Below are positions 11,084 through 32,000 of a stretch of 32,000 nt of DNA, piece by piece. The stretch is from NCBI GenBank assembly GCA_965224465.1, contig OZ245049.1, forward strand, positions 4,530,001 to 4,562,000, read 5' to 3'. The DNA comes from Flavobacteriaceae bacterium. GTDB taxonomy: Bacteria > Bacteroidota > Bacteroidia > Flavobacteriales > Flavobacteriaceae. Each line of letters starts with the position of its first letter. The stretch's first letter is position 1. The position numbers and the translations under genes are program-made. The notes below the pieces were generated by a model. That model was not told the DNA's origin, ran no database searches, and was given only the letters and a program-made list of their open reading frames with translations.

Positions 11084-11084
11084 C

Positions 11085-13665: not shown

Positions 13666-15432
13666 ATGGCATTACAAAGCATCACTTCTATTTGGATAGG
13701 ATCAACAGAGATATCCTATTTTAAATCATTAGAATTACATCAAAATATAAAAGACCATCACCACCTAAAATTAGTTTGTCGCATGGATGTTTTAGAGGGT
13801 TTTGAAGAAGAACAAGCAAAGAGTAGCAAGGATTTTTTAGGCCAGGTTATCAGCTTAGAAATAAGTCCCTCTATAGGGGTTGAAGGCGCCAAAGAACTCC
13901 TTTTTAAAGGCGTTGTAACGGGCGTGCAAAGCATAAAGGGCTTTGAGGCAGGTGATGGCGATGAAGTGATTATTAGCGCAAAGAGTCCTACTGTTTTAGC
14001 TAGCGATGGCGCACATTTCACTTCGTACAACGATGTTTCTTTGTCTGATATTATATACGATAATTTTCAGCTTTACGACACCTCAAAGCTATCCGTTTTA
14101 ACACGCTTACAAAACGATCCTACCATACATTATTCGGTACAGCACAACGAAAGTTCTTTTGCCTATGCAAGTAGGTTAGCGGCTATGCATGGAGAATGGA
14201 TGTACTACGATGGAATCCAATTGATCTTTGGAAAACCAGATCAAGCAGAAGTTGCATTAACCTACGGATTTGATTTAAAAGAATACGAGTTAAAGCTAGA
14301 GCCACAATCTAGTAATTACACCTATTTTGCAAACGATTATTTAACAGACCAGGTATATGAGCAATCGGCAGCTAATGTAAATACAGGACTGCGAGGATAT
14401 GGCGATTTTGTATCAGGTAAATCCGCACATCTATTCCATAAGGAAACTAAAATTTGGCATAATTTACACAACAGTCCACAAACGCAACAACGCTTAGACA
14501 GGGCTACAGAAATACAAATAAAAGCAATTGCTTTACAACAAGTAATTGTCCGTGTCACAAGCGACAATACAGGGGTAAAACTGGGAGGTATTGTAACGAT
14601 AGAAGGCAATAAATACAGGGTTGTAAAAATTACACATACCAATACAGAAACAGGCGAATACCTCAATAAATTTGAGGCCATTACCACAGATATAAATACA
14701 TATCCGTATACAGATATAAACGCATTTCCAAAAAGTGAAAGTCAAACAGCTGTTGTAAAACACAACGATGATCCCGATGGTTTAGGGCGTGTAAAAGTAC
14801 AGTTTGTTTGGCAAAAAATCACAGGAGAAATAAGTCCATGGATACGAATGGTACAGCCACATGGGGGAGCAGATAAGGGCTTTTATTTTATTCCCGAAAT
14901 AAACGAAGAAGTATTGGTAGGTTTTGAAGGTGGGAATGCAGAGTATCCCTATGTCCTAGGTAGCCTCTACAATGGAAGTCAGGGCGCAGGTGCTTTTCAA
15001 TCAAAAAACAACGATATCAAAGCGATTAAAACCCGTAGCGGACATACTATTGAGTTTAATGATAAAGAGGGTGCAGAAAGCATTACTATAAAAGATAAAA
15101 AGAATAATAGTGTTTTTATTGATACCGCAAATAATAATATAACGATATCGGCAAATGAAACAATGACTTTTAAAGCTAAAAACATTGAGATTAACACTAC
15201 AGAAAATCTAAATATATTTGTAGGAAAGGACAAAAACGAAAGCATTGCAAAAAAACAAACTTTAACAGCAAAAAACAGCACTATCTTAATTGAAGAAAAA
15301 GCAGAAATTCAAGCTAAAGAGTATCTTAAAAATGCGCAAAAAATAACAATAAATAGTACCAAAGAAAACCTAGAACTTTCAAGTGCGAAACAAGTAGTGA
15401 GTAATAGTGCTGAAAAAAATATTTTAAGTTAA
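13666..15432 (+). CDS. vgrG: VgrG / TssI-like spike protein (gp27-gp5 type)
   Basis: 588 aa. gp5 OB-fold signature GRVKVQFVWQ...SPWIRMVQPHGGADKGFYFIPEINEEVLVGFEGGNAEYPYVLGSLYNG, followed by a repetitive beta-helix-like tail (IKAIKTRSGHTIEFNDKEGAESITIKDKKNNSVFID...). Confidence 0.85.
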   Translation: MALQSITSIWIGSTEISYFKSLELHQNIKDHHHLKLVCRMDVLEGFEEEQAKSSKDFLGQVISLEISPSIGVEGAKELLFKGVVTGVQSIKGFEAGDGDEVIISAKSPTVLASDGAHFTSYNDVSLSDIIYDNFQLYDTSKLSVLTRLQNDPTIHYSVQHNESSFAYASRLAAMHGEWMYYDGIQLIFGKPDQAEVALTYGFDLKEYELKLEPQSSNYTYFANDYLTDQVYEQSAANVNTGLRGYGDFVSGKSAHLFHKETKIWHNLHNSPQTQQRLDRATEIQIKAIALQQVIVRVTSDNTGVKLGGIVTIEGNKYRVVKITHTNTETGEYLNKFEAITTDINTYPYTDINAFPKSESQTAVVKHNDDPDGLGRVKVQFVWQKITGEISPWIRMVQPHGGADKGFYFIPEINEEVLVGFEGGNAEYPYVLGSLYNGSQGAGAFQSKNNDIKAIKTRSGHTIEFNDKEGAESITIKDKKNNSVFIDTANNNITISANETMTFKAKNIEINTTENLNIFVGKDKNESIAKKQTLTAKNSTILIEEKAEIQAKEYLKNAQKITINSTKENLELSSAKQVVSNSAEKNILS

Positions 15433-15436
15433 GTGT

Positions 15437-15691
15437 ATGTTTGATTTTATAACAGACACAGAACGTAACGAGAAGGCTTTTAAAAACAATGACCTTAATT
15501 TGGACGGTCGTGACACCTTAAATATTCGCCCCATAATTGGGGTACATACCTATGCGGTCTCTATAAAACATCTGGATGCTGAAACCGAAAAACGACTTGA
15601 CTATACAATAACTGTTGAATTTTTAGAGACCAATGATAAACTAGAATATCTTTTTAGAATTGATAAATCAAATTTTTTTATCAAGACTTGA
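15437..15691 (+). CDS. hypothetical protein (possibly the 5' half of a frameshifted gene)
   Basis: 84-aa ORF starting 5 nt after vgrG. It ends just after a T7 run (15674..15680). Confidence 0.4.
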   Translation: MFDFITDTERNEKAFKNNDLNLDGRDTLNIRPIIGVHTYAVSIKHLDAETEKRLDYTITVEFLETNDKLEYLFRIDKSNFFIKT

Positions 15692-15932
15692 AAAAAGTAG
15701 AGAAAATTATTTCGATGAATTAATTCGAATTCCTGATTATGTAGCTGGGGCATTAGCTTCTTATGATATTGAAAATAAAGAAAATATGTTTAAAATAAAG
15801 GGAAAGAATAAATTGATTTTCAGGGATGTAATTTCTGAATCAATAAATCAAGTAACTTTGAAACTTGAAAGTAGTGAACAAGCTCTATTATCTGTTTATA
15901 ATTTTAAATGGATGAATAGTAAAAGTACTTAA
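15660..15932 (+). CDS. hypothetical protein (possibly the 3' half of a frameshifted gene)
   Basis: 90-aa ORF with a non-ATG (TTG) start that overlaps the previous ORF. Removing one T from the T7 run fuses the two into about 173 aa. Confidence 0.35.
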   Translation: MINQIFLSRLEKSRENYFDELIRIPDYVAGALASYDIENKENMFKIKGKNKLIFRDVISESINQVTLKLESSEQALLSVYNFKWMNSKST

Positions 15933-16095
15933 CAGCACCTAAACGTAATGCAGGTTTGGTGCTTACAATAAAGTTCAGTACATCTAACGAATACCGCTAA
16001 CACGAAGTCTCACCGAAGGCAAATCTTTTGATTTGGTTTTAAGAGAATAAAGAAAAAACAAAATAAAAAGCTTTGGCTAATTGCAATATTGAAAG

Positions 16096-16147
16096 TCCGT
16101 ACTTTCTAATCCGTACTGCGCTTAGCCAAACGTTCTAAGCAATTAGA
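16096..16147 (+). promoter_or_regulatory. conserved 52-nt upstream element, copy 1 (function unknown)
   Basis: tccgtactttctaatccgtactgcgcttagccaaacgttctaagcaattaga. Contains the direct repeat TCCGTACT-N6-TCCGTACT and the palindrome GCTTAG-N9-CTAAGC. Lies 23 nt upstream of ATG 16171. Similar copy at 18668..18719. Confidence 0.4.
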
Positions 16148-16216
16148 CCACTAAACTTAAAAAAATAAAAATGATATCAAAATTAATAGCTACGGTAGGC
16201 GACACACACTTGTCCA

Positions 16217-16999
16217 ATGATAACAGCTACAAAACCTCATACTGGAGGAACAATTATTTCAGGCTCTCAAAGTGTTTTTATTAACAATAAACCCGTAGCA
16301 CGTATGGGGGATAAATGTATTTGTACTGGATGTGGGATGATTACAATAATTGTACAAGGAGATGCTAATGTATTAGTAGATGGAGTACCTATTGCTTATA
16401 TGGGATGTATGACTTCGCACGGAGGAGTAATCACATCTGGACAAGTCAATGCTTTGATTGCAGGAAACAAACCTCCAAATATTGTAACTATGCCATTAGA
16501 GGATATTCCTTTTCCAAATATTTATTTAATCGATAAAATATTCTCTTCAAAACAGATTAAAGTATCTAAATCTAACATTGAAAAAATTAAAGAACAAGCT
16601 TATAGTGATGATGAAAACATATCAATTACAAGTACAGTTGCAATTGAACAATTTGTTGAATTTTGTAAAGAAACAGAAACAGAGGATTTTATAAATCAAT
16701 GTAAAGAAGCTTACGGAAATAAAATTTTAAAAAAAACGTTTAAAATTTTGCAAGAGAAAGCCAAAAACAATGAAATTCAACAACCAAAAATAAAAACAAC
16801 AAAAGGATATGTACCTAAAGATGTTAATTATAATTTTAAAGAAGGGGCTCATATCATAGAAGTGACCGAAAGAATTATAAAAGCGTCTAAAAAAAGTGAA
16901 ACAGAACACGATAGGTTAATGCTTAATTTAGGAAATGCTTTTCACGATTATATAAAAAGTATCATTGATAATGAATGTAAACCAATTGTAAATTCTTAA
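16217..16999 (+). CDS. PAAR domain-containing protein with ~170-aa unrecognised C-terminal extension (N-terminus apparently frameshifted, see findings)
   Basis: PHTGGTIISGSQSVFINNKPVARMGDKCIC...VDGVPIAYMGCMTSHGG matches PAAR repeats. The expected first motif (MISKLIATVGDTH) lies in another frame, starting at 16171. Confidence 0.8.
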   Translation: MITATKPHTGGTIISGSQSVFINNKPVARMGDKCICTGCGMITIIVQGDANVLVDGVPIAYMGCMTSHGGVITSGQVNALIAGNKPPNIVTMPLEDIPFPNIYLIDKIFSSKQIKVSKSNIEKIKEQAYSDDENISITSTVAIEQFVEFCKETETEDFINQCKEAYGNKILKKTFKILQEKAKNNEIQQPKIKTTKGYVPKDVNYNFKEGAHIIEVTERIIKASKKSETEHDRLMLNLGNAFHDYIKSIIDNECKPIVNS

Positions 17000-17001
17000 A
17001 A

Positions 17002-17901
17002 ATGAAAAAAAAATTAGTAGACTTATTTCTCAAAAAATCTGAAATGACTGCCACAGCCAATATAAATGGAGAAACACACGAATTATCTATGATTATCGGA
17101 GGGAGTGAATTAAAAGAATTAGAAAAACCATATAAAGAGCATCAATATTTCTATTATTGTTACGTAACAGATGAATTTGTGAATGGAAAAAAATATGCTC
17201 TTACTGTTGTTGCAAGGATGGATTTAAAACGGTATTATGGAATACCTGAACCAATTAAAAATGAAATTATCTACAGGCACGTAGACATTACACATATAGC
17301 ATTAGATGGTAACGGAACTCCTATTACAGGATGGCATCATCGAAGAGAAATTGATGAAATAAGAAAAGAAGGAGATGGAGGAATTTGGGATAGTATATTA
17401 AATACTAGTAAATATTTTGAACATAAAACAAAAAGTGATAAAACGTACAGGGTTAAAGAACAGAATATTAATGATGTTTTAAATAAACAAATTTTAGTTT
17501 GTCAATCTAACGTAAATATTAAACTTGAAAAAAATTTTATAAAATACTTAAATGAAATAGGCAATTTTACAAGAGAGAACGATACTACCTTTCCTTACGC
17601 TGTAATTAGTGATGAGATGGCTGACTTCGACAACATCAGAACAGCAATCGGTGCAGTTTCAATGTTTGTGCCAGTTGGTAGAGCTTATAAATTATCTCAA
17701 GAAATTGTTTCATATTTAATGGACATAATAGGTTCTTCAAGTTTGGCACTACCAGCTTCGAAATTTTATGATTTGCGTGGTCCTATAAAATTATCAAAAG
17801 TTACAAGAGATGTTTACGAAAGTTTTATCGGTCAGAATAGTAAACATTATTATGAAAAAAAACAAACAAATCAAAATGATGAAATTATTATATTTTATTA
17901 G
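17002..17901 (+). CDS. hypothetical protein (no signal peptide), tightly coupled to the PAAR gene
   Basis: 299-aa ORF starting 2 nt after the PAAR gene stop. No recognisable motifs. Confidence 0.6.
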   Translation: MKKKLVDLFLKKSEMTATANINGETHELSMIIGGSELKELEKPYKEHQYFYYCYVTDEFVNGKKYALTVVARMDLKRYYGIPEPIKNEIIYRHVDITHIALDGNGTPITGWHHRREIDEIRKEGDGGIWDSILNTSKYFEHKTKSDKTYRVKEQNINDVLNKQILVCQSNVNIKLEKNFIKYLNEIGNFTRENDTTFPYAVISDEMADFDNIRTAIGAVSMFVPVGRAYKLSQEIVSYLMDIIGSSSLALPASKFYDLRGPIKLSKVTRDVYESFIGQNSKHYYEKKQTNQNDEIIIFY

Positions 17902-18508
17902 TAAATTATTTTTATTATTTACATTTATTACTTCTTGTACGAGCAATAAAGAAGTTCCTTTTTTAATAACTTCAGATTTTTTATCAAACTTTGATTCGAT
18001 AAAAAAACAAGCTCCATATAAAGTTACAAACTTAGCTAATTGTGATGTAGGGTATTCTAATTTACCTATGGAAATTCATACTAAAAGAAATAGTAAAAAA
18101 ATACATAAAGCTTGGGATGAAATAGTTAACCTGTATAAATCAGAATCTAATTTCTATATAGATACAATAAATATAGAAATTAGAGTTAAAAGAAAATTGA
18201 CTAAATGGCTTTTTGAAAATGACAAAAGATTAGAAAAGCAAATAACAGTTGATGATTTTAAAAACTTGTTAATCAAAGATGGCGTAAAACCAAACGATTT
18301 CGACATTAAACAAGAAAGGGAAATCGAATATGATGGTGGATTTAAAAATAAAATATTAGAGCTATGGTATAAAGGGACAGTGAATAATATTAGAATTGGT
18401 CGTAAAGGAGATATCCATATAAATACTTACTTAGAATCTCAAATACCATACTGGGAAACACAAGGATATCAGTTTTCAACACCCTCGCCTGAAACGAGTG
18501 GAAAATAG
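17852..18508 (+). CDS. hypothetical lipoprotein
   Basis: Track ORF begins at 17810. The internal start MKKNKQIKMMKLLYFISKLFLLFTFITSCTSNK gives a charged n-region, a hydrophobic core and the lipobox ITSC. Overlaps the previous gene by 50 nt. Confidence 0.6.
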   Translation: MKKNKQIKMMKLLYFISKLFLLFTFITSCTSNKEVPFLITSDFLSNFDSIKKQAPYKVTNLANCDVGYSNLPMEIHTKRNSKKIHKAWDEIVNLYKSESNFYIDTINIEIRVKRKLTKWLFENDKRLEKQITVDDFKNLLIKDGVKPNDFDIKQEREIEYDGGFKNKILELWYKGTVNNIRIGRKGDIHINTYLESQIPYWETQGYQFSTPSPETSGK

Positions 18509-18667
18509 GTTTAAAAATAAAAATTAAAGCCACCTAAAATAACTGCTTAGAATAATAAGTGTATTATACTACCGGCAACGCTATTAATAACCAATCCATC
18601 AATAGTATATTCATACCCTACTAAATAACCACCTATAGAAACATCACCATCTACAGAATTAGAAGCA

Positions 18668-18719
18668 TCCGTACTTTCTAATCCATACTTCGCTTAGCCA
18701 AACGTTATAGCCGATTAGA
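18668..18719 (+). promoter_or_regulatory. conserved 52-nt upstream element, copy 2
   Basis: tccgtactttctaatccatacttcgcttagccaaacgttatagccgattaga, with about 7 mismatches to copy 1. Followed 4 nt later by ATG 18724, a 35-codon ORF in a different frame from the 18815 ORF. Confidence 0.4.
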
Positions 18720-18814
18720 AAAAATGGAATACAAAGGAAAAATTGCTGAAGAGTTTGTAAATGAATTAACATATAATTTATTTTTAAAGTTTTGGCGCTA
18801 CCCTGGTCAGAAAT

Positions 18815-19633
18815 ATGAAAACGTCAGCTAATCGACTTTTTGGGTATATAGCTAGGTTCCAAATAAAAACAACTTTATACGCCAATAAAGATTCTTTTAC
18901 AGGTAAAGAAGTGGACTATGTAAGAGAAGGATTAATTATTAATGATAAAGAAAATCGTAATAGCAATAATTTTACAAACAAATTTAAAAGCGTTGCTCCT
19001 AACGGAGAGGTAATTGGAGTCACTTATACAAGCGAAGATGAAATGATTAGCAATAGTGGTTACGGGAGACATGTACAATATGGTATAGATAACGCTCGTA
19101 AATACACCAAAACTGCTTTAAAAGAGATATACGATACAAAAAATAATGGTTTTGTCCTGGAAGGGCAGCAAGTATCTTTTCAGGTAAAAGATGATACGAT
19201 GGATGTGATATTAGAGAAATACGAAGCGGGAAAAAATAATATGTTGGCTGTTGTAGGTGATGTAGAATACAGCTCAAAAGAAACAGGATCTTGTAAATTC
19301 TCTAAATTACAAATAGAACATAAAAGTAGAAAGAAACCATTTGTACTTTTTGACGAAGAGAAGACGACTCAAAAACCAATAGACCATACCAATTTAGCCT
19401 TTTCCATTATAGCAGCAACAAAGAAAGAAACGATTAAGATTACAGCCATTGGCTTAGCCATACAAAACTATCAAGATAAAGGAGAACGAAAACCAAAATG
19501 TTATGGTATTACCACCGCAAAAAAGATAAAAGAAGGCATTCTGACGGATAAAAAAATAAAACATAAAAGACAATTAGATTTTAAGCACAACTCCATTAAA
19601 GATGTGTTTCCTATGGAAGACGCTTATATATTA
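18815..19633 (+). pseudogene. 5' part (273 codons) of a ~751-aa candidate secreted effector gene interrupted by IS30 copy B
   Basis: The ORF reads into the IS at 19634, so the last 12 codons of the track ORF (AEFKSQTQLLVK) are IS-derived. The true start may be further upstream (18724) with a frameshift. Confidence 0.75.
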
Positions 19634-20758
19634 GCTGAATTCAAGTCACAAACGCAACTTTTAGTTAAATAATAATTGTTCCATTACAAATATAGGGTTT
19701 TCGTATTTATGTCTCTTCCTAGGTCTGTTATTTAATTTTGTTTCTACCTCTTTGATTCTTTGATCTGTTAGGTTTGTAAAGTCACTTCCTTTGGCAAAAT
19801 ATTGTCTAATCAAACCATTTAAATTTTCGTTAGATCCTCTTTCCCAAGAGTGATATGGATGCGCAAAAAAGTAATCAATACATAAATTTTCTGCAACCTG
19901 CTCATGGCCTGCAAATTCTTTTCCATTATCAGCTGTTATAGTATGTAGATAAGGCTTCCAGTCTTCTAATATTTCATTGATAGCTTTAGTGACAACAACT
20001 GCTTCTTTAGAGCTTACTTTTTTCATTTTAAGCATTCCAGAAGCTCTATCGTTTACGGTAAGTATGGCTTGATTATGGTTTTTACCTATGATTAAATCGA
20101 CCTCTAAATCTCCAAATCGATTTCTTTGTTCAACAACTTCAGGGCGTTGTTCTATACTAATACGATTCTTTATAACCCCTCTAGAATCCTTTGATGAGCC
20201 ACGTTTTCTATATCTCCTTCCCTGTCTGCGAAGGTGTGTATGTAAATCACCATCATTCCTCTTGTCTTCCCTAATATGCTGATATATACGCTCAATAGAC
20301 ACCGTTTCTTTACCTTGTTTTTTTAGGACACCAACTACTTGCTCAGGACTATAATCGTCTCGCAATAACAACTCTATTGCTTGTTGAATATCTTCTGTAA
20401 AGCGTTTTCTTTTAGGCTTTTCTTTATGACGTTTAGCATACTTTTTTTGGGCTAATTCATGCTTGTAAACTCCATTTCTTTTGTCTGAATTACGCTTAAT
20501 CTCTTTGCTAATAACAGACTTGTCTTTTCCTATAGCAGCTGCTATCTCAACCTGTTTATAACCTTGTTTTAACATGCAACAAATTGTGTATCTTTGCGCT
20601 TGGGTGATGTGTTTCATACAACTTCTTTTTTCGAGATTTGAGACCGTAAGATACATATCCATCAAGACAAGAAAGGTAGGTTTTCCTACTTTTCTGTTTT
20701 GAAAATATAACCATCATAGAATCAAATCGAAAAGTTGCGTTTATTAGTTGAATTTAAG
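19634..20758 (-). mobile_element. IS30-family insertion sequence, copy B (1125 bp)
   Basis: About 99% identical to copy A, same orientation. Flanked by a 3-bp direct duplication TTA (19631..19633 and 20759..20761). Confidence 0.9.
19661..20617 (-). CDS. IS30 family transposase
   Basis: Differs from the copy A protein by one residue (VGILKK versus VGVLKK). Start chosen as for copy A. Confidence 0.9.
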   Translation of the reverse strand: MKHITQAQRYTICCMLKQGYKQVEIAAAIGKDKSVISKEIKRNSDKRNGVYKHELAQKKYAKRHKEKPKRKRFTEDIQQAIELLLRDDYSPEQVVGVLKKQGKETVSIERIYQHIREDKRNDGDLHTHLRRQGRRYRKRGSSKDSRGVIKNRISIEQRPEVVEQRNRFGDLEVDLIIGKNHNQAILTVNDRASGMLKMKKVSSKEAVVVTKAINEILEDWKPYLHTITADNGKEFAGHEQVAENLCIDYFFAHPYHSWERGSNENLNGLIRQYFAKGSDFTNLTDQRIKEVETKLNNRPRKRHKYENPIFVMEQLLFN

Positions 20759-22198
20759 TTATACCCAGATGCTATAAGTAATGTATCTACTGCTATTGTA
20801 GAGACAGACGGTACAGGTACAATTAATATAGAAGAACAAAACCTCGAATACACCTATCTCAAAAATGGTATAGAACTAAAGGTTGGGTATTTTTACAATA
20901 AGACTTTTGATACTTCTGTAGAAAAAATAATTGGACTAAAAATAGGAGAATGGACGAATGATTTTATTGATAAAGCTTGGATTTTAAGATACTTTTTACT
21001 CAGAGATAATCAAGCACAAACCTATTTTATCCCTGTTGGAACTTGTAGGTACCCGAATCAAACCGTTGTCATAAAAATATATCCAGACATAAATTGGTCT
21101 ATTTCATTTTCTTTTGGGAAGGTAGATCCAAAACATAAAGAAGATTGGCAAAGTGGCTTGTCCGAAAAAAAAGCAGCACTAATAAATAAGTATAAAGAAG
21201 AAATATCCGAAACAAAAGCAGCACTAATAAATAAGTGTAAAGAAGTAATTTTTAGAAGTAAACAGCTCTCCGTAGAAGAAAAGAAAAAAAAAGAAGTATT
21301 AAAAAAAATCAACTTCTCACTTGGTATAGCCGCTGCTTATGGTACAAATAAAATTAATTTAACACCTGATTTAGGTAAAAAAATACATGACCTAATATAT
21401 GAGTTTGCCAAAGCCAAAAACTTAATTGATTCTATAAGTGGAAATTCTGTTAGTAAAGAAAAACAAAATTCATTATACAAAAATCGGATAAAAAATCTTG
21501 GTGGAAAATGGATGAAAAAACTAGACAAACTACCTGTTACCATAACAGTGTATCAACCCAGTTTTTCAGCTGGTTTTGCATGGGGTAGGAAAACATTGGA
21601 ATCACAAACAAATTGCAATGCTCCTATAACATATGATGTGTTTTTAAAAGCAGATCCTTTATTTAAAATGGAAGGAAGCCTAGATTTAATTACCTGTGCT
21701 ACTTTTATGCCTGTTATTGGACAGGTAATAAAAGTAGTTGATATTGTATTAAATGTTGCTGGAATAGAGCCTGTATTGAAGCTTACTGCCATGGGGGAAA
21801 TTAAATTATCACTAATAGGTACAATAAAAGTTGACGGCGACACCAATGAGAAAAAACTAGAAACTAAAATGAGTGCAGGACTCAAAATGACTATAGAAGC
21901 AAGTATTACTATAGGAGATGGACTGGTAGGATTTATGTTTGCTGGTGGTGATATTATTGGCACTGTGACAAAGAAGACCTATACCGCCTATGCGGAAACA
22001 GGATTTGAATTAAACCTATCCACTGGCGTTACGGCTCATAAAGGCCCCTATGTAGGAGTGAAACTAGAATTCCTAGGTCTTATTGCTGCAGGGAAATTAG
22101 AAACAAAAATAGATAAATTTGGAGGGACTTCCGAAGAACTATTTAAGTATACTATTATAGAGAAAACTACTTTTATAGACAAAACTTTTTACTTTTAA
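20759..22198 (+). pseudogene. 3' part (about 478 codons) of the IS30-interrupted candidate effector gene
   Basis: Removing the IS and one TTA copy joins ...MEDAYIL to YPDAISNV... in frame. The first 8 codons of the track ORF (MRLLVEFK) are IS-derived. The C-terminal ~220 aa are rich in Gly, Ala, Ile and Thr (GDGLVGFMFAGGDIIG, LGLIAAG). Confidence 0.75.
21161..21250 (+). repeat. 2 x 45-bp in-frame tandem repeat inside the effector gene
   Basis: tccgaaaaaaaagcagcactaataaataagtataaagaagaaata followed by tccgaaacaaaagcagcactaataaataagtgtaaagaagtaatt (SEKKAALINKYKEEI / SETKAALINKCKEVI). Confidence 0.85.
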
Positions 22199-22202
22199 AA
22201 TT

Positions 22203-23144
<942 letters not shown>

Positions 23145-23155
23145 TAAAAGAAAGT

Positions 23156-24058
23156 ATGAATAGAATTTTATTGATTTCGTGGGGCTGTATTTTTTTCTGT
23201 TGTTCAGTGTATGGACAACAGAAAAAAAACATGAACACCCAAACCAGCCAACAGAACAATTACCCGTATAAAAACGACAGCCGACCTGGTTATTATTTAC
23301 AAATAAATAATCAGAATTGTTATTACGAACTGGATATAAATGGCTTAAGCAGTACAGAGTATTATGGTGAATATCCTGCTTATTCAACAAGAATACCTCT
23401 AAATCTTCAAATATTAAAAAGTGGAACACAAAGTCTTTCCTTAAAAATAGTTCCTTATAAAGGTGATACCCTGTCTCCAAAAGCCAACCTGCAAATGCGT
23501 TTGATAAAATATGCAGACATGACAGATTTAGAAAACGAATATGGAGGAAGTACCGTATTGTGGAACTGGGAAATGCCAGATATTGAGAACCAAAAACTAC
23601 CCTTATTTGTTTATGATACTGTATTTAAAGCGGAGGTGCCCTATTCAATTAATACACTTGACACCAAGGCAGTTGATTTATCTAAAATAGACAAAGACAT
23701 ACTGCTAGAGAAAGTACTTACAGAATTTACTAGGATTAGAGCATCTGTTATTAATAAAACACAAGACAAAGAAGCTTTATGTAAATTGGTAAATCGTGGA
23801 ATTATACAATTATACAAAGGAGAAAAACTTAAAGACGAGGTGGTTGATGATATGATAAATCTTGGAGATGGAAAAGAACCACAAGCCTTAGAGAATTTTG
23901 AAATGTGCATGTATTATCACAATAGAACTGTAACTCTGGTTAGAAAAGTTAATAAAGGAGCTGTTATCTGGTTTGAGAATCCAGAAACGGGAGGGACATC
24001 CTGGCAGCCTGTTTATATATACATAGATAAGGTTACTGGGAAATGGGTGCGATGGTAA
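23156..24058 (+). CDS. family-A lipoprotein or secreted paralogue A2
   Basis: Start placed at MNRILLISWGCIFFCCSVYGQQKK. The MGAMVIKES extension in the track is the 3' end of A1 read in another frame. Only 2 Gln at the tract position. Confidence 0.75.
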   Translation: MNRILLISWGCIFFCCSVYGQQKKNMNTQTSQQNNYPYKNDSRPGYYLQINNQNCYYELDINGLSSTEYYGEYPAYSTRIPLNLQILKSGTQSLSLKIVPYKGDTLSPKANLQMRLIKYADMTDLENEYGGSTVLWNWEMPDIENQKLPLFVYDTVFKAEVPYSINTLDTKAVDLSKIDKDILLEKVLTEFTRIRASVINKTQDKEALCKLVNRGIIQLYKGEKLKDEVVDDMINLGDGKEPQALENFEMCMYYHNRTVTLVRKVNKGAVIWFENPETGGTSWQPVYIYIDKVTGKWVRW

Positions 24059-24069
24059 TAAAAGAAAGT

Positions 24070-24972
24070 ATGAATAGAATTTTATTGATTTCGTGGGGCT
24101 GTATTTTTTTCTGTTGTTCAGTGTATGGACAACAGAAAAAAAACATGAACACCCAAACCAGCCAACAGAACAATTACCCGTATAAAAACGACAGCCGACC
24201 TGGTTATTATTTACAAATAAATAATCAGAATTGTTATTACGAACTGAGAATTAATGATTTTAATGGAGGTAATTATTTTGGTATGTACCCATCATATTCA
24301 GTACGGATCCCTTTAAATTTACGAATATTAAAAAGTGGAAAACAAAGTCTTTCTTTAAAAATAGTTCCTTATAAAGGTGATACCCTGTCTCCCAAAGCCA
24401 ACCTACAAATGCGTTTGATAAAATATGCAGACATGACAGATTTAGAAAACGAATATGGAGGAAGTACTGTATTGTGGAGCTGGGAAATGCCAGATATTGA
24501 GAATCAAAAATTACCCTTATTTGTTTATGATACTGTATTTAATGCAGAAGTGCCCTATACACTTGATAGACTTGACACCAAGGCAGTTGATTTATCTAAA
24601 ATAGACAAAGACATACTGCTAGAGAAAGTACTTACAGAATTTACTAGGATAAGAGCATCTATTATTAATAAAACACAAGACAAAGAAGCTTTATGTGATT
24701 TTATAGATTGTGCACTTATACAATTATACAAAGGAGAAAAACTTAAAGACGAGGTGATTGATGGTATGATAAATCTTGGAGATGGAAAAGAACCACAACC
24801 CTTAGAGAATTTTGAAATGCGCATGTATTATCACAATAGAATTGTAACTCTGGTTAGGAAAGTTAATAAAAGGTCTGCTATCTGGTTTGAGAATCCAGAA
24901 ACAGGAGGGACATCCTGGCAGCCTGTTAATCTATACATAGATAAGGTTACTGGGAAATGGGTGCGATGGTAA
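24070..24972 (+). CDS. family-A paralogue A3
   Basis: Same architecture as A2. Carries the alternative variable patch ELRINDFNGGNYFGMYPSYSVR. Confidence 0.75.
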   Translation: MNRILLISWGCIFFCCSVYGQQKKNMNTQTSQQNNYPYKNDSRPGYYLQINNQNCYYELRINDFNGGNYFGMYPSYSVRIPLNLRILKSGKQSLSLKIVPYKGDTLSPKANLQMRLIKYADMTDLENEYGGSTVLWSWEMPDIENQKLPLFVYDTVFNAEVPYTLDRLDTKAVDLSKIDKDILLEKVLTEFTRIRASIINKTQDKEALCDFIDCALIQLYKGEKLKDEVIDGMINLGDGKEPQPLENFEMRMYYHNRIVTLVRKVNKRSAIWFENPETGGTSWQPVNLYIDKVTGKWVRW

Positions 24973-25186
24973 TAAAAAAAGTTAAAATTTGATTACCCAC
25001 GGTATTTTACATAGAGTCTGATTTTTCGACGGATTTTTATTTTTCAGGAGTCACCATTTTTGTTAAATTTCAAGGAGGGAGAAAAAAAGAGGGTAAAGCA
25101 GACTCTACTTTTCACATAATCGACGATTTAAGCACTTCTTTTGATATTTTAAAAAAGAAAGGAGAATTCAAATAAAATAATAAAAA

Positions 25187-26008
25187 ATGAAATCACAAAA
25201 ACACCTTATACTAAGCATTGCAATGCTAGTACTTGTTAATTGTAAAGGACAAGAAAGTAAAAAAACAAACGATCATAAAAAATACGCAATGAATATACCA
25301 AAAAAACAATATTTCCTGAACTATGAGCTATTTATGTCTTATGAATTATATATAAATGATGTAAAATTAACCAATAATTTTCAATCGGGACCAGTATCTG
25401 GTATGGAGTATTTGAATGATTACATTCTGAATTCGGGAAAACAAACAATAACATTAATTGACCGTGATTTAGAACCTGATTCTAATATGCCAAATGATAT
25501 ATTTAAAAAAATAAGTTTAGCAATTTATAGTGCAGATGAAAATGATGAAAACACAAAGTTGGAAAAGAAGTTTGATTTCCCTGATATACCAACTCCAAGA
25601 CCATATTATTATAAAAACACATGGGAGTTTGATGCTGAAGTTCCTTACACCGTAGACGGATGGAAAGATGGGCAAGATTTATCAAAAATAGATCAAAAAG
25701 AGTTGAAGAAAATGGTGGTAGCGAAATTTCAACACTTAAGAACAATTTTAAATCAAGGAAAAGTAGATCAATTTATGGAAGAAAACGCCAAAGGATATAA
25801 GGAATTTGTTATTACCAACTATTATCAAAAAAAATGGCATGAATTTGACGAAAACATTAGAGAAACTATAGGTAATCAAAAGGGAATTATGCTTCCTTTA
25901 GAGCATTATAAAATGAAAATAGTTGCAAATGGTCAATTGGTAACCTTAGAAAGAATTAACCTCCCTTATAAAGGACAAAGTGCATTGTTAGCAATCAATG
26001 AAAAATAA
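25187..26008 (+). CDS. family-B lipoprotein B1 (distant paralogue of family A)
   Basis: 273 aa, lipobox LVNCKG. Shares architecture with family A (YELYINDVKL... / ...SGKQTITL / FDAEVPYTVDGW..DLSKIDQKEL). Ends at a TAA that is followed by 33 more in-frame codons. Confidence 0.7.
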   Translation: MKSQKHLILSIAMLVLVNCKGQESKKTNDHKKYAMNIPKKQYFLNYELFMSYELYINDVKLTNNFQSGPVSGMEYLNDYILNSGKQTITLIDRDLEPDSNMPNDIFKKISLAIYSADENDENTKLEKKFDFPDIPTPRPYYYKNTWEFDAEVPYTVDGWKDGQDLSKIDQKELKKMVVAKFQHLRTILNQGKVDQFMEENAKGYKEFVITNYYQKKWHEFDENIRETIGNQKGIMLPLEHYKMKIVANGQLVTLERINLPYKGQSALLAINEK

Positions 26009-26141
26009 AATACGATATACACTGATTATATTCATTTATATATGCCAAAAGGAAAAACAAGCTTAGAGCCAATACGTCTGAATATAGAATATGAGGTTGC
26101 TCATTTTTAAAAACAACAACTTTACAACAGATTAATCATCA

Positions 26142-26311
26142 ATGATAAAAAGGCTGCTATCTGGTTTAAGAATTCAAAAACGAGAGGAACATCCTGGCAG
26201 CCTGTTTATACCAAATACATTTCCAAGAGACGGTTTAGAAATGGAATTATTTTTTATATCGGTCATTTTGGATTGTAATTGGTATCATATATACATAGAT
26301 AAGGTTAAAGG
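26142..26311 (+). pseudogene. remnant of a family-A gene 3' end, frameshifted and carrying a MITE insertion
   Basis: aaaaggctgctatctggtttaagaattcaaaaacgagaggaacatcctggcagcctgtttata ... tatatacatagataaggtta aligns to the conserved A-gene tail (NKRAAIWFENPETGGTSWQPVYIYIDKV). Confidence 0.65.
26211..26286 (+). mobile_element. 76-bp MITE-like element, copy 3, inserted in the A-gene remnant
   Basis: Intact paralogues read cctgtttatatatacatag. Here 76 bp are inserted and ATA (or TA) is duplicated at the junctions. Near-identical to 1408..1483. Confidence 0.65.
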
Positions 26312-27242
26312 GCAAAGTGGCTTGTCCGAAAAAAAAGAAGTATTAAAAAAAATCAACTTCTCACTTGGTATAGCCGCTGCTTATGGTACAAATAAAATTA
26401 ATTTAACACCTGATTTAGGTAAAAAAATACATGACCTAATATATGAGTTTGCCAAAGCCAAAAACTTAATTGATTCTATAAGTGGAAATTCTGTTAGTAA
26501 AGAAAAACAAAATTCATTATACAAAAATCGGATAAAAAATCTTGGTGGAAAATGGATGAAAAAACTAGACAAACTACCTGTTACCATAACAGTGTATCAA
26601 CCCAGTTTTTCAGCTGGTTTTGCATGGGGTAGGAAAACATTGGAATCACAAACAAATTGCAATGCTCCTATAACATATGATGTGTTTTTAAAAGCAGATC
26701 CTTTATTTAAAATGGAAGGAAGCCTAGATTTAATTACCTGTGCTACTTTTATGCCTGTTATTGGACAGGTAATAAAAGTAGTTGATATTGTATTAAATGT
26801 TGCTGGAATAGAGCCTGTATTGAAGCTTACTGCCATGGGGGAAATTAAATTATCACTAATAGGTACAATAAAAGTTGACGGCGACACCAATGAGAAAAAA
26901 CTAGAAACTAAAATGAGTGCAGGACTCAAAATGACTATAGAAGCAAGTATTACTATAGGAGATGGACTGGTAGGATTTATGTTTGCCGGTGGTGATATTA
27001 TTGGTGCTGTGACAAAAAACACCTATACCGCCTATGCGGAAACAGGATTTGAATTAAACCTATCCACTGGCGTTACGGCTCATAAAGGCCCCTATGTAGG
27101 AGTGAAACTAGAATTCCTAGGTCTTATTGCTGCAGGGAAATTAGAAACAAAAATGGATGAATATGGAGGGACTTCCGAAGAAACTTTTAAGTATATTATT
27201 ATAGATAAAACTACTTTTATAGATAAAACTTTTTACTTTTAA
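26312..27242 (+). pseudogene. orphan copy of the effector C-terminal module (duplicate of about 21147..22198, lacking a 120-bp repeat segment)
   Basis: Near-identical to the 3' third of the effector gene from WQSGLSEKK onward, diverging only in about the last 35 codons. It has no N-terminal region of its own. The track ORF 26142..27242 is a chimera reading through the A remnant and the MITE. Confidence 0.7.
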
Positions 27243-27246
27243 AATT

Positions 27247-28179
<933 letters not shown>

Positions 28180-28190
28180 TAAAAGAAAGT

Positions 28191-29094
28191 ATGAATAGAA
28201 TTTTATTGATTTCGTGGGGCTGTATTTTTTTCTGTTGTTCAGTGTATGGACAACAGAAAAAAAACATGAACACCCAAACCAGCCAACAGAACAATTACCC
28301 GTATAAAAACGACAGCCGACCTGGTTATTATTTACAAATAAATAATCAGAATTGTTATTACGAACTGAGAATTAATGATTTTAATGGGGGTAAATATTTT
28401 GATATGTACCCATCATATTCAGTACGAATCCCCTTAAATTTACGAATATTAAAAAGTGGAACACAAAGTCTTTCTTTAAAAATAGTTCCTTATAAAGGTG
28501 ACACCCTGTCTCCAAAAGCCAACCTACAAATGCGTTTGATAAAATATGCAGACATGACAGATTTAGAAAACGAATATGGAGGAAGTACCGTATTGTGGAA
28601 CTGGGAAATGCCAGATATTGAGAATCAAAAACTACCCTTATTTGTTTATGATACTGTATTTAATGCAGAGGTGCCCTATACAATTAATACACTTGACACC
28701 AAGGCAGTTGATTTATCTAAAATAGACAAAGACATACTGCTAGAGAGAGTACTTACAGAATTTACTAGGATAAGAGCATCTATTATTAATAAATCACAAG
28801 ATAAAAAAGATTTAATAAGGGGGATAAGACGTCCGCTTATTCAGTTATATAAGGGAGAAAAACTTAAAGACGAGGTGATTGATGGTATGATAAATCTTGG
28901 AGACGGAAAAGAACCGCAACCCTTAGAAAATTTTGAAATGCACTTGTATTATCACAATAGAATTGTAACTCTGGTTAGAAAAGTTAATAAAAGGGCTGCT
29001 ATCTGGTTTTGAGAATCCAGAAACGGGAGGGACATCCTGGCAGCCTGTTTATATATACATAGATAAGGTTACTGGGAAATGGGTGCGATGGTAA
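28191..29094 (+). pseudogene. family-A paralogue A5, frameshifted near the 3' end
   Basis: T4 at 29007..29010 where all other paralogues have T3 (ctggtttgagaatcc). This creates TGA at 29010..29012. The remaining 27 codons of the conserved tail continue in the +1 frame to the stop at 29092..29094. Confidence 0.7.
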
Positions 29095-29308
29095 TAAAAA
29101 AAGTTAAAATTTGATTACCCACGGTATTTTACATAGAGTCTGATTTTTCGACGGATTTTTATTTTTCAGGAGTCACCATTTTTGTTAAATTTCAAGGAGG
29201 GAGAAAAAAAGAGGGTAAAGCAGACTCTACTTTTCACATAATCGACGATTTAAGCACTTCTTTTGATATTTTAAAAAAGAAAGGAGAATTCAAATAAAAT
29301 AATAAAAA

Positions 29309-29404
29309 ATGAAATCACAAAAACACCTCATACTAAGCATTGCAATGCTAGTACTTGTTAATTGTAAAGGACAAGAAAGTAAAAAAACAAACGATCATAA
29401 AAAA
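29309..29404 (+). pseudogene. family-B lipoprotein gene B2, 5' part (32 codons), interrupted by IS66-family element
   Basis: MKSQKHLILSIAMLVLVNCKGQESKKTNDHKK is identical to the B1 N-terminus. The upstream 215-bp intergenic region matches the one before B1. Confidence 0.75.
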
Positions 29405-29483
29405 GTAAGCGTACGGAGAACTACATCTTGTAAGAAGTTAAAAATAATCTAATTTTTGCATCTAAACAAAAACGAAAATATAA

Positions 29484-29837
29484 ATGTTAGGATTAGGTAC
29501 AGAACACACGTATTATTATCACTTATCTGCAGTTGATATGCGAAAAGGATTTAATGGATTAAGTGGATTAGTTAGTGAGCACATGGAACAAGAGCGAGAT
29601 AGAAATAGTGTTTATGCATTTATCAATAAGCAAAAAAATAAACTAAAACTTCTTCATTGGCGACCTGGAGGATTTGTACTGTATTATAAACGATTGGAAC
29701 GAGGTATTTTTGAGCTTCCAAAATACGACATTGAAGATGGATTAGTAGTTTTGAGTTATACCCAAATGGTTATGGTTTTAGACGGAATTAGTATTATAAA
29801 TACTCAGAAAAACGAACGTTATTTAGAGGCTAAATAA
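29484..29837 (+). CDS. tnpB: IS66 family accessory protein TnpB
   Basis: 117 aa. DMRKGFNGLSGLV and LKLLHWRPGGFVLYYKRLERG motifs are typical of IS66 Orf2. Confidence 0.85.
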   Translation: MLGLGTEHTYYYHLSAVDMRKGFNGLSGLVSEHMEQERDRNSVYAFINKQKNKLKLLHWRPGGFVLYYKRLERGIFELPKYDIEDGLVVLSYTQMVMVLDGISIINTQKNERYLEAK

Positions 29838-29880
29838 TTCAATAAAACTGTAGGTTTTACCTGCTATTTAGTCTTGTTTT

Positions 29881-31383
29881 TTGTATATTTATAGTGTGGA
29901 AAACAATACAATAGACATACAAAAAGAGCTGGTAATTTTAAAGATTGAACTTGAAAAAACAGCTCAAGAACTAGCTGAAATTAAGCAGCAATACGAGCAG
30001 CTTAAAAGAATGGTTTTCGGGTCTAAAAGCGAACGTTTTATCCCTGTTGACACAAATCAATTGTCGCTTTTCGGAAAAATAATAGCTGAGAAAGAAGAGG
30101 CATACAAAAAACATATTGTAATCTACGAAAGAAAACAAAAGAAGAAAGGAGAGAAAAAACCTGTTCGCTCTTCTATACCTGCGCATTTTCCGCGAGTAGA
30201 AGAGATTATAGAGCCTAAGCACATAGAAGAAGGAGCTGTAAAAATAGGAGAAGAAGTTACAGAACTTTTAGAAATAACGCCTCTTTCCGTTTTTGTAAGA
30301 CGAATTGTAAGACCTAAATATGCACTTCCGGAAGAAAAAGGCGTTGTTATAGCAGAATTACCAAGCTTACCGATACCTAAAGGAAATGCATCAGCAAGTT
30401 TATTGGCCTTTATACTTATTTCAAAATTTGTAGACCATTTACCACTTTACAGATTAATTCAAATTTTTAAACGACAAGATTTAAAAGTAAGTAAATCAAC
30501 AATTGGAGGATGGGTATCTAAAAGTTCGGAGCTTATCGCTCCTTTATACGATACATTTAAGGCTCAGTTTTTAGAAAATGCCAATTATATTCAAGCAGAC
30601 GAATCTCCTATAAAGGTTTTAGATAAAGACAAGAAAAAATCAACACACAGAGGGTATATGTGGGTGTATCGAAATCCTGTTAAAAATTTAGTTCTTTTTG
30701 AATACAATAAAGGGAGAGGAAAAGTTGTTCCAGAAGAGTTTTTTAAAGATTTCAATGGGACACTACAGTCCGATGGGTATGCTGCATACCAAAACTTAAC
30801 AACAAAAGGAGAAATTACTCTTTTAGGTTGCATGGCTCATGCTAGGCGGTATTTTGAGAAGGCGCTGGATAATGATCCTAAAAGAGCGGATGTTGTTTTG
30901 TTGGAAATTCAAAAGCTATACAAGATAGAACGTAAAATAAAAGAACAAGAATTAACTATTGAGCAAACTAAAGCATATAGAGAAAAACATGCATCACCTG
31001 TTTTAGACGGAATAGAAATTTATCTTACAAAAGAGCGAAAAAACGTACTGCCTAAAAGTGCCATAGGAAAAGCAATTGCTTATACTCTTAAAATATGGCA
31101 AAACCTAAAACTATACATCGATGATGGCAGGTTTGAAATAGACAACAATAATATAGAAAATGCCATAAGACCTTTAGCTATTGGCAGAAAAAATTATCTC
31201 TTTGCTGGCAGTCATGAGTCCGCACAAAACATAGCTCTATTTTATAGCTTTTTTGCTACTTGCAAAAAGAATAACGTAAACCCACATACGTGGCTATGTG
31301 ATGTCCTTAATAGATTACCAGAACATAAGGCTAATAAACTTTCGGAGTTACTGCCTCAAAATTGGAAGCCTGTTGATAAATAA
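29881..31383 (+). CDS. IS66 family transposase (TnpC)
   Basis: About 500 aa. N-terminal coiled coil and KRMVFGSKSERF, DHLPLYRL, ADESPIKVL...GYMWVY, and CMAHARRYF motifs. The start codon is uncertain (TTG 29881 or GTG 29895). Confidence 0.9.
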   Translation: MYIYSVENNTIDIQKELVILKIELEKTAQELAEIKQQYEQLKRMVFGSKSERFIPVDTNQLSLFGKIIAEKEEAYKKHIVIYERKQKKKGEKKPVRSSIPAHFPRVEEIIEPKHIEEGAVKIGEEVTELLEITPLSVFVRRIVRPKYALPEEKGVVIAELPSLPIPKGNASASLLAFILISKFVDHLPLYRLIQIFKRQDLKVSKSTIGGWVSKSSELIAPLYDTFKAQFLENANYIQADESPIKVLDKDKKKSTHRGYMWVYRNPVKNLVLFEYNKGRGKVVPEEFFKDFNGTLQSDGYAAYQNLTTKGEITLLGCMAHARRYFEKALDNDPKRADVVLLEIQKLYKIERKIKEQELTIEQTKAYREKHASPVLDGIEIYLTKERKNVLPKSAIGKAIAYTLKIWQNLKLYIDDGRFEIDNNNIENAIRPLAIGRKNYLFAGSHESAQNIALFYSFFATCKKNNVNPHTWLCDVLNRLPEHKANKLSELLPQNWKPVDK

Positions 31384-31411
31384 TCAAGGGTGTACTTTAC
31401 CGTACGCTTAC

Positions 31412-32000
31412 CATAAAAAATACGCAATGAATATACCAAAAAAACAATATTTTCTAAACTTTGAGTTATTTATGTCTTATGAAATATATATAAATGACAT
31501 GAAAATAGCAAATAACATTCAATCTGGACCAGTATCTGGATTACGATATTTGAATGATTACATTCTGAATTCGGGAAAACAAACAATAACATTAATTGAC
31601 CGTGATTTAAAACCTAATTCTAATATGCCAAATGATATATTTAAAAAAATAAGTTTAGAAATTTATAGTGCAGATGAAAATGATGAAAACACAAAGTTGG
31701 AAAAGAAGTTTGATTTCCCTGATATACCAACTCCAAGACCATATTATTATAAAAACACATGGGAGTTTGATGCTGAAGTTCCTTACACCGTAGACGGATG
31801 GAAAGATGGGCAAGATTTATCAAAAATAGATCAAAAAGAGTTGAAGAAAATGGTGGTAGCGAAATTTCAACACTTAAGAACAATTTTAAATCAAGGAAAA
31901 GTAGATCAATTTATGGAAGAAAACGCCAAAGGATATAAGGAATTTGTTATTACCAACTATTATCAAAAAAAATGGCATGAATTTGACGAAAACATTAGAG
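31412..32000 (+). pseudogene. family-B lipoprotein gene B2, 3' part (continues beyond window)
   Basis: After the duplicated CATAAAAAA the frame continues YAMNIPKKQYFLNFELFMSYEIYINDMK..., highly similar by eye to B1. Confidence 0.75.

Follow-up and report, generated by a model that had tools for sequence, protein, structure and literature searches.

The present study concerns a stretch of 32,000 nucleotides (nt) from a Flavobacteriaceae bacterium (assembly GCA_965224465.1, contig OZ245049.1, positions 4,530,001 to 4,562,000; hereafter the window), and in particular an island of genes from position 13,666 onward, in which a VgrG spike gene, a PAAR gene, a large effector gene and an array of lipoprotein genes follow one another. 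We propose that this island, an auxiliary VgrG island probably of an Aquimarina-like marine flavobacterium, is very probably a decayed duplicate of a Bte3/Bti3-type locus of the type VI secretion system iii (T6SS-iii), and that it most likely serves at present as an array of immunity genes with a store of toxin C-termini. An initial annotation had described an effector-immunity island with an orphan toxin C-terminus and arrays of lipoprotein immunity paralogues, and all the features it listed were found again at their positions, so that its type VI reading is supported. However, it had also taken the system for an unrecognised, possibly new one, and here our results differ: the island is real, but it is a member of a known family rather than a new system, as its families match by profile a Bacteroidales locus with the layout published for Bte3, Bti3, Ate3 and Pte3 of Bacteroides fragilis. 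The module, so far studied in gut Bacteroides, is thereby extended to marine and soil Bacteroidota, in whose lineages it has been amplified into arrays with orphan toxin ends. For the annotation of the window, the lesson is that the island is probably a decayed duplicate keeping mostly immunity genes, and the parts of most further interest are the orphan arrays with their hypervariable loop and the unassigned unit of PAAR, 299-aa and 218-aa genes.

Relation to the Bte3/Bti3 module of Bacteroides fragilis

In B. fragilis, the GA3 locus has the layout bte3-bti3-orf1-ate3-pte3-bte4-bti4 (Valguarnera et al., Nat Commun 2026; PMC13402684). The same study reported that Bte3 is toxic only in the periplasm, as tested by expression with and without a PelB leader, that Bti3 is a protective lipoprotein found in the periplasm and outer-membrane fractions, that the secretion of Bte3 requires both the adaptor Ate3 and the DUF4280 protein Pte3, and that structural orthologues of Bte3 exist in free-living Bacteroidota including Flavobacterium columnare (PMC13402684). 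In our exhaustive HMMER search, the profile of the large-effector family returned 340 cluster representatives, which span Aquimarina, Tenacibaculum, Chryseobacterium, Pedobacter and fish pathogens of the F. columnare group, with Porphyromonas macacae, metagenome-assembled genomes (MAGs) of Bacteroidales and F. oreochromis/columnare among the named ones. Many of these representatives are 750-785 amino acids (aa) long and match only through their C-terminal 360 residues or so. One protein of this kind, P0189 (766 aa), was matched by the family profile with an E-value of 1.8e-24, and by hhalign with a probability of 99.9% and an E-value of 1.4e-34 over its residues 253-731; the toxin domain encoded by the 3' piece of the effector gene in the window aligns with the C-terminal part of P0189. 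The gene for P0189 is part of a complete T6SS-iii cluster (L075) with TssN, TssE (gp25-like), three copies of TssD, ClpV, TssC and VgrG, and it is followed 3' by two lipoproteins of the same family as those of our island (A1-A5 and B1-B2, together the A/B family), a 315-aa protein of the adaptor family (E 2.5e-33), a DUF4280 protein and a further gene pair. The hidden Markov model (HMM) of the A/B family, built from 107 sequences, matched the two genes directly after P0189 (325 aa and 336 aa) over their full length, with E-values of 3.4e-56 and 9e-54. Because of these profile matches to a locus with the published layout, the large protein is assigned to the Bte3 family, the A/B lipoproteins to the Bti3 family and the adaptor of about 330 aa to the Ate3 family.

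The likeness to the B. fragilis module covers the same four gene families beside a dedicated VgrG, three of them matched by profile and the fourth recognised from the DUF4280 domain present in both. It also covers an effector that lacks a signal peptide and carries a conserved, apparently beta-rich C-terminal domain of about 350 aa, and an immunity protein that is a lipoprotein. However, the marine proteins, with 880-1045 aa, extend about 200 aa further at their N-terminus than Bte3 with its 768 aa, and the adaptor and DUF4280 genes stand before the effector, whereas in B. fragilis they come after the immunity gene. Cassettes of the Aquimarina type further add a 382-aa Sortilin/BNR-like gene and a long DUF4280 protein, both absent from the published module; each of their genomes holds many amplified copies of the immunity genes and orphan C-termini, and the copy in the window is a pseudogene without a complete adaptor or a DUF4280 gene. 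Orphan bti3 genes are rare in B. fragilis, being found in 3 of 882 isolates, and the acquired interbacterial defence (AID) orphan-immunity islands of Bacteroidales are mentioned in the same paper (PMC13402684). Our array resembles such islands in being a cluster of immunity genes without a working cognate toxin and in its link to mobile elements, but it lies in a VgrG island, would have arisen from duplication of the genome's own effector locus, and no integrase-based AID cluster was seen.

For the relatives, we compared three homologue-encoding contigs and 67 genomic loci, the latter from Aquimarina, Tamlana, Cellulophaga, Aequorivita, Tenacibaculum, Chryseobacterium, Pedobacter, F. columnare, F. 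covae and a Bacteroidales MAG. They share the order VgrG, adaptor of about 330 aa, DUF4280 PAAR-like protein, large effector and A/B-type lipoprotein. The adaptor and DUF4280 genes accompany VgrG upstream of the effector in 63 of the 67 loci, of which set the window retains only the cassette-type VgrG. An A/B-like gene lies no more than 1.3 kb downstream of the effector in 62 of 67, at least two such genes are present in 19, and fragments of the large gene follow in 11. In the Aquimarina-type cassettes, the extra gene sits between DUF4280 and the effector and has Sortilin-Vps10/BNR likeness (L003 6296-7444, L001 8807-9955), and the DUF4280 proteins measure 455-533 aa; after the cassette of Aquimarina latercula, phage-like genes including Peptidase_M15_3 and Glucosaminidase lie on the opposite strand (L001 17170-23027). 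Fte1 of F. johnsoniae was considered as a counterpart of the large effector and rejected, since it is the DUF4280 protein Fjoh_3275.

The delivery machine had been left between T6SS-iii and another contractile system, with the remark that the window holds no core genes of a T6SS. The remark is borne out, as TssD (PF17642), TssN/O/P/Q/R, TssB/C and ClpV were all absent from the window, and it is this absence that speaks for an origin of VgrG and PAAR from an extracellular contractile injection system (eCIS) or a prophage tail. We give this origin almost no credence, however, because genes for sheath, tube and baseplate of the phage or eCIS type are likewise absent from the window, and because homologous cassettes stand beside core genes of T6SS-iii in L003, L071, L075 and 16 other loci. 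Pairs of TssD genes precede VgrG in L003 and 16 other loci, and on a plasmid of Tenacibaculum finnmarkense the cassette follows annotated tssO, tssR and tssD genes. Since the cassettes of the relatives adjoin TssD, TssR, TssO, TssN, TssC and ClpV, the delivery machine is most readily taken as a T6SS-iii, the first of the two proposals.

Decay of the delivery genes and of the large effector

The initial annotation was right that genes for VgrG and PAAR are present, as both are confirmed by profile matches, which for VgrG are Phage_GPD and Phage_base_V at E 1e-23 together with TIGR01646 and TIGR03361. The C-terminal 123 aa of VgrG (residues 466-588, positions 15066-15432) share 65-73% identity with the VgrGs of related cassettes, against 46-53% for its N-terminal part compared with those in other genera, and only 26% with the 602-aa VgrG paralogue of the same genome. 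By these identities, the C-terminus is of the type seen 5' of adaptor-DUF4280-effector cassettes, a pattern consistent with a role in specifying cargo. Directly after VgrG, an open reading frame (ORF) of 84 aa covers positions 2-83 of the 329-position adaptor HMM (64 homologues) with an E-value of 1.3e-13, the remainder of the adaptor profile finds no match anywhere downstream of this stump, and no DUF4280 gene occurs in the window. It is from the stump and the cassette-type C-terminus of VgrG that the island appears to have begun as a normal cassette. We read the segment from about 15690 to 18862 as foreign DNA that replaced the DUF4280 gene along with most of the adaptor and the 5' part of the effector gene; the 90-aa ORF at its start has no match to a Pfam or NCBIfam family and no counterpart in the related loci.

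The large gene had been reconstructed as a protein of about 751 aa. Excising the IS30 element together with one TTA indeed joins 18815-19633 in frame to 20762-22198 and yields 751 aa, with 4 nt between its stop codon and the start of A1, but this is not the whole protein, since its homologues measure 880-1045 aa. Homology begins only at 18863, at residue 251 of P0065, and the 16 codons with which the ORF opens are unrelated. P0065 is an intact 985-aa paralogue which exact-sequence cluster look-ups placed elsewhere in the same genome of 5,241,564 bp. From residue 251 onward the effector of the window is 99.2% identical to it, and in a tblastn search with P0065 the 5' piece was 100% identical over residues 251-507 and the 3' piece 98.7% over residues 507-985. 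The first 250 residues, conserved in all full-length relatives, are absent from the window copy, which with these 250 codons missing and IS30 inserted does not form the intact reading frame of a Bte3-type effector. The large gene of the window is thus a pseudogene, a dead toxin gene. A second copy of IS30 lies at 8725-9849 with a GTT target duplication; the two copies are 1125 bp each and differ at 8 positions, and since each has its own 3-bp duplication (GTT, TTA), they point to recent transposition in this genome.

That the 751-aa gene encodes an effector had been part of the original proposal, and an active polymorphic toxin locus, in which the 751-aa protein or its halves would be fired on the local VgrG-PAAR spike, could draw on the frame preserved across the IS30 site and on the identity of 99% to the intact paralogue, from which the decay appears recent. 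We nevertheless regard an active locus as highly improbable, because the conserved 5' part of the gene is gone, IS30 still interrupts it, and the adaptor is down to 84 codons with no DUF4280 gene beside it, both of which were required for the secretion of Bte3 in B. fragilis. Nor does the PAAR protein serve as the tip of the large effector, for its gene is part of a distinct cassette that has taken the place of the native delivery genes.

The history of the island may thus be pictured as follows. It would have started as a duplicate cassette of VgrG, an Ate3-like adaptor, a DUF4280 tip, a Bte3-family effector of about 985 aa and lipoproteins of the Bti3 family. In working copies, by analogy with Bte3 of B. 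fragilis, the adaptor and the DUF4280 protein would load the effector onto the matching VgrG, the beta-rich C-terminal domain of the effector would then poison the periplasm or outer membrane of the target cell, and the periplasm-facing lipoprotein would shield sister cells; a toxin acting in the periplasm or envelope, as the initial annotation had supposed, is the best reading. In the window, a segment of 3.2 kb (about 15690-18862) would have taken the place of the DUF4280 gene together with three quarters of the adaptor and the initial 250 codons of the effector gene, and a later insertion of IS30 would have split what remained of the effector, killing the toxin gene. A1-A4, and possibly the truncated B1, would still protect against the intact effector of the genome itself and against related toxins of neighbours, while the orphan toxin C-terminus, distinct mainly in a patch of about 20 residues, could be recombined into the intact effector gene. 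The imported cassette of PAAR, 299-aa protein and lipoprotein might represent a separate pair of cargo effector and immunity protein. In this picture, gene identities, truncations, family membership and synteny are results of the analysis, whereas how the toxin acts, the immunity function, cassette switching and any activity of the 299-aa protein are inferences. The coordinates of these features are collected in Table 1.

Table 1. Coordinates of the features of the island and of features in related loci (window positions unless a locus is named)
Feature	Position	Strand	Remarks
VgrG spike protein, 588 aa	13666-15432	+	Phage_GPD and Phage_base_V (Pfam), TIGR01646, TIGR03361
Ate3-like adaptor stump, 84 codons	15437-15691	+	HMM match; full gene about 330 aa in relatives
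90-aa ORF	15660-15932	+	start of the putative replacing segment
Canonical PAAR tip protein, 260 aa	16217-16999	+	PF05488 plus conserved extension of about 170 aa
299-aa protein, candidate cargo effector of the PAAR cassette	17002-17901	+	no signal peptide
218-aa lipoprotein, candidate immunity protein	17852-18508	+	signal peptide, lipobox FITSC; overlaps the end of the 299-aa gene
Effector pseudogene, 5' piece	18863-19633	+	residues 251-507 of intact P0065; called ORF 18815-19672
IS30-family element	19634-20758	-	transposase 19661-20665; TTA target duplication; Pfam HTH_38 and rve
Effector pseudogene, 3' piece including the C-terminal toxin domain	20762-22198	+	residues 507-985 of P0065
Hypervariable patch of about 20 residues	22100-22165 (main), 27144-27209 (orphan)		
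A1, Bti3-family lipoprotein, 313 aa	22203-23144	+	intact; poly-Q linker, lipobox LTTAC
A2 paralogue	23156-24058	+	intact; different signal peptide
A3 paralogue	24070-24972	+	intact
B1, second-class Bti3-family lipoprotein	25187-26110	+	truncated; nonsense codon 26006-26008
Orphan module	26142-27242	+	degenerate A 3' remnant (26145-26210) and toxin C-terminal fragment; open 366-aa ORF
A4 paralogue	27247-28179	+	intact; poly-Q linker
A5 paralogue	28191-29094	+	+1 T frameshift near 29008
B2 paralogue	29309-32000	+	split by IS66; cut after codon 32; resumes at about 31411-31420 and runs off the window end
IS66-family element	29405-31410	+	tnpB 29484-29837, tnpC 29881-31383; Pfam TnpB_IS66, DDE_Tnp_IS66
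PAAR-extension-Het-C proteins with C-terminal LysM, about 1100 aa	L073 102-3476, L074 27-3263		
Loci with A/B homologues lacking a signal peptide	L029, L041-L045, L051-L053, L055, L057, L059, L061, L066, L067, L069		

The lipoprotein array and the orphan toxin ends

Downstream of the large gene, the array runs in the order A1, A2, A3, B1, orphan toxin C-terminus, A4, A5 and B2. The seven lipoprotein paralogues annotated at the outset are all present and homologous, although three of them are damaged, A5 by a frameshift, B1 by a nonsense codon and B2 by IS66. A1-A5 share 85-90% protein identity with one another, and B1 and B2 have about 27% identity to the A proteins with conserved columns and are clearly homologous. 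B1 equals the 307-aa paralogue P0018 except for the change of GAA to TAA at 26006, which leaves 273 of 307 codons. The IS66 element within B2 carries no tnpA; its terminal inverted repeats of 12 bp are perfect (GTAAGCGTACGG), and its target duplication measures 8-9 bp. The lipoboxes, read from the sequence without a dedicated predictor, are LTTAC in A1 and A4, FFCC in A2, A3 and A5, and LVNC in the B proteins. In A1 and A4, a (CAA)n/CAG tract right after the lipobox cysteine encodes the poly-Q linker (22254-22310, about 17 Q, and 27298-27345, about 14 Q, respectively), a length-variable simple repeat in the lipoprotein tether that A2, A3 and A5 do not have. Exact-sequence cluster look-ups gave totals for the genome of at least seven A copies, at least eight B copies and three copies of VgrG (588, 588 and 602 aa).

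Relatives of A1 lie 3' of the effector in L003, L004 and L011 with 60-71% identity. Behind effectors whose C-terminus aligns with that of the window stand A-like genes, and behind the rest B-like genes for the most part (13 and 2 against 12 and 28; Fisher p 2e-4, uncorrected for phylogeny), and since the class of the C-terminus tracks that of the immunity gene, the B genes of the window are probably immunity genes to a toxin class not encoded here. No curated family or solved structure matches the A/B proteins, which would fit surface or nutrient-binding lipoproteins amplified by chance beside a mobile region. Such a coincidence is extremely unlikely, however, given the homologues close behind the effector in 62 of 67 loci, the agreement between A/B class and effector C-terminus, the full-length profile matches to genes in the Bti3 position, and the protection against Bte3 shown experimentally for Bti3 (PMC13402684).

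The homology of the orphan fragment to the toxin runs over 26329-27242, corresponding to residues 682-985 of P0065, and only 14 of 914 nt differ between it and the main gene (21285-22198). Ten of these 14 differences change an amino acid (7 codons), and eight of the ten fall within the last 90 nt or so. The 366-aa orphan ORF begins with about 55 codons that read, out of frame, through the degenerate 3' remnant of an A gene, and it lacks a stretch of about 40 codons between two poly-A runs that is present in the main gene. Across the genome, the C-terminal fragments comprise four of 366 aa and two of 228 aa. The eight C-terminal copies in total are 95-98% identical, carry the same domain and are nearly identical except for a patch of about 20 residues near the C-terminus, for which KINKKGEASEEP, KIDKFGGTSEEL and KMDEYGGTSEET are examples of the variants. 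The same focal patch separates the orphans in an unrelated Flavobacteriaceae MAG (L018, 13639-14442 and 16413-17216).

Arrays of orphan toxin and immunity genes are a feature of Rhs, contact-dependent inhibition (CDI) and other polymorphic toxin loci. The window shares with them promoter-less 3' toxin fragments stacked 3' of the full-length gene, each with an immunity gene, here the orphan fragment followed by A4, A5 and B2, a feature that recurs in 11 related loci; the homologous 5' flanks would permit the swapping of fragments. However, no match to Rhs or CDI families was found, and Rhs/YD repeats and a VENN or PxxxxDPxGL demarcation motif are absent from the window. Distinct toxin domains behind such a motif were not found either, as all copies carry the same domain and differ almost only in the patch, and the orphan of the window has its start within the degenerate remnant of an immunity gene, with a frame of 366 aa that is still open.

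With regard to specificity, the A copies differ mainly in two patches. Positive selection on them was tested as an explanation, but the ratio of non-synonymous to synonymous change (pN/pS) stays under 1 throughout, and within the patches synonymous divergence is high as well, which suggests mosaic recombination and not demonstrable diversifying selection. It may be that the loop of about 20 residues in the orphans, together with the Bti3-like variants in their two patches, forms a specificity code diversified by recombination, and that the toxin concerned acts in the periplasm or on the outer membrane; such cassette switching is not described for Bte3. Taken jointly, switching of cassettes of the Bte3 family in marine Flavobacteriaceae and a new cargo effector-immunity pair in the PAAR unit are put forward tentatively, with a chance clearly short of even. 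The hypervariable patch is likely the site of contact between toxin and immunity protein and could guide work on the unexplained action of the toxin.

Against the derivation of the island from a Bte3/Bti3-type locus, and against the roles proposed for its genes, several observations have to be set. P0189 is called Bte3-type by its size, locus layout and partner genes and not by the sequence of Bte3 itself, and the T6SS-iii core of this organism is deduced from relatives only. The 366-aa orphan ORF is open in all four of its copies, which leaves room for an expression of its own. The pN/pS values and mosaic look of the A copies give no direct signal of positive selection. Out of the 107 A/B homologues, about 84 have a lipobox and about 20, from other genera, have no signal peptide, so that periplasmic immunity is not family-wide; the latter come from Chryseobacterium, Pedobacter and the F. 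covae/columnare group, lie 600-800 nt after the effector, and may represent a cytoplasmic subgroup within the immunity family. Finally, the AlphaFold2 models have a predicted local distance difference test (pLDDT) score of about 50, and the published folds are not comparable on them. The poor effector model (alignment of 17 sequences, pLDDT 50.7) is beta-rich throughout with long C-terminal hairpins, and Foldseek against the PDB returned only generic tandem Ig-like sandwiches at a template modelling (TM) score of about 0.1; a sequence search of the PDB with the effector profile gave no match. With the Bti3-type fold defined as an N-terminal beta-sandwich followed by four helices, the equally poor A1 model (16 sequences, pLDDT 50.2) has its sandwich at residues 59-172 and four helices at 179-250, with additional strands at the C-terminus, and only weak, generic C2-like matches were obtained from Foldseek against the PDB.

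The PAAR segment and the setting of the island

The PAAR protein with its C-terminal extension, the 299-aa cytoplasmic protein and the 218-aa lipoprotein were all recovered as ORFs, the second of them lacking a signal peptide as annotated. Among the proteins the initial annotation could not assign, the effector has, like the A/B lipoproteins, found its place in a locus of the P0189 type, whereas these three remain without a family: the 170 aa or so beyond the PAAR domain have no family match, the 299-aa protein has no significant match in Pfam, NCBIfam or PDB and none in the plasmid search or metagenome scan, and no search assigned a family to the 218-aa lipoprotein. PF05488 spans aa 5-73 of the PAAR protein (E 8.5e-21; 74.4 bits against the Pfam threshold of 27). 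The best solved relative of the domain is the T6SS PAAR of B. fragilis, 8GRA_J, at E 1e-17 over the PAAR domain only. This protein, named the PAAR for Bte2 (Pte2) in PMC13402684, has 222 aa, the match ending at its residue 106. Both proteins thus exceed a bare PAAR domain, but their extensions are dissimilar, and the 299-aa partner in the window resembles nothing known.

On an independent marine metagenome contig (L072), all 260 aa of the PAAR protein including the extension are matched at 76% identity, and they are followed in the same order by homologues of the 299-aa protein (57%) and the lipoprotein (40%), so that the three genes look like a maintained unit. On two further marine metagenome contigs (L073, L074), the whole 260 aa correspond at 37-40% identity to the N-terminus of PAAR-Het-C-LysM proteins of about 1100 aa, which are likewise followed by lipoprotein genes, the one in L073, which was scanned against Pfam, carrying DUF7738. 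The PAAR of the window shares with these effectors the domain and the extension of about 170 aa but ends after it, without Het-C or LysM, and a separate 299-aa gene comes next. Since the extension is common to all three contigs, it would be a conserved linker or cargo-holding region.

From the gene layout, the 299-aa protein may be a toxin carried as cargo, to which the 218-aa lipoprotein would confer immunity, an effector-immunity pair that may be held by the conserved PAAR extension, and the imported cassette is possibly still active. The alignment of all 260 aa with the N-terminus of the Het-C proteins, and the failure of the 299-aa protein to match any toxin family, could also mean that the PAAR gene is a relic of a PAAR-Het-C effector, that the two genes after it, of 299 and 218 aa, are passengers with no relation to it, and that the DNA from 15.7 to 18.9 kb has no toxin function. 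Such a relic is rather unlikely in our estimation, because the recurrence of the split order in L072 argues for a maintained unit, the overlap of the 299-aa and 218-aa genes is the usual layout of effector and immunity genes, and the PAAR of 8GRA likewise extends past its domain.

As for the setting of the island, the G+C content of the window is 33%, and its left half carries housekeeping genes, namely those for a pseudouridine synthase, YaaA, serine dehydratase, DnaK and a subtilase. All the genes treated here from 13666 on lie on the plus strand, with the exception of the IS30 transposase. On the minus strand at 10637-12003, in the interval separating the island from the other IS30 copy, lie three small genes that overlap one another (148, 138 and 173 aa); the middle one has an HTH_3 domain with weak matches to antitoxins of the HigA/HipB kind, and the trio may be a toxin-antitoxin or phage-derived module. 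Just 5' of VgrG, at 12333-12770, lies a gene for a 145-aa lipoprotein with the lipobox LFSC and no family match.

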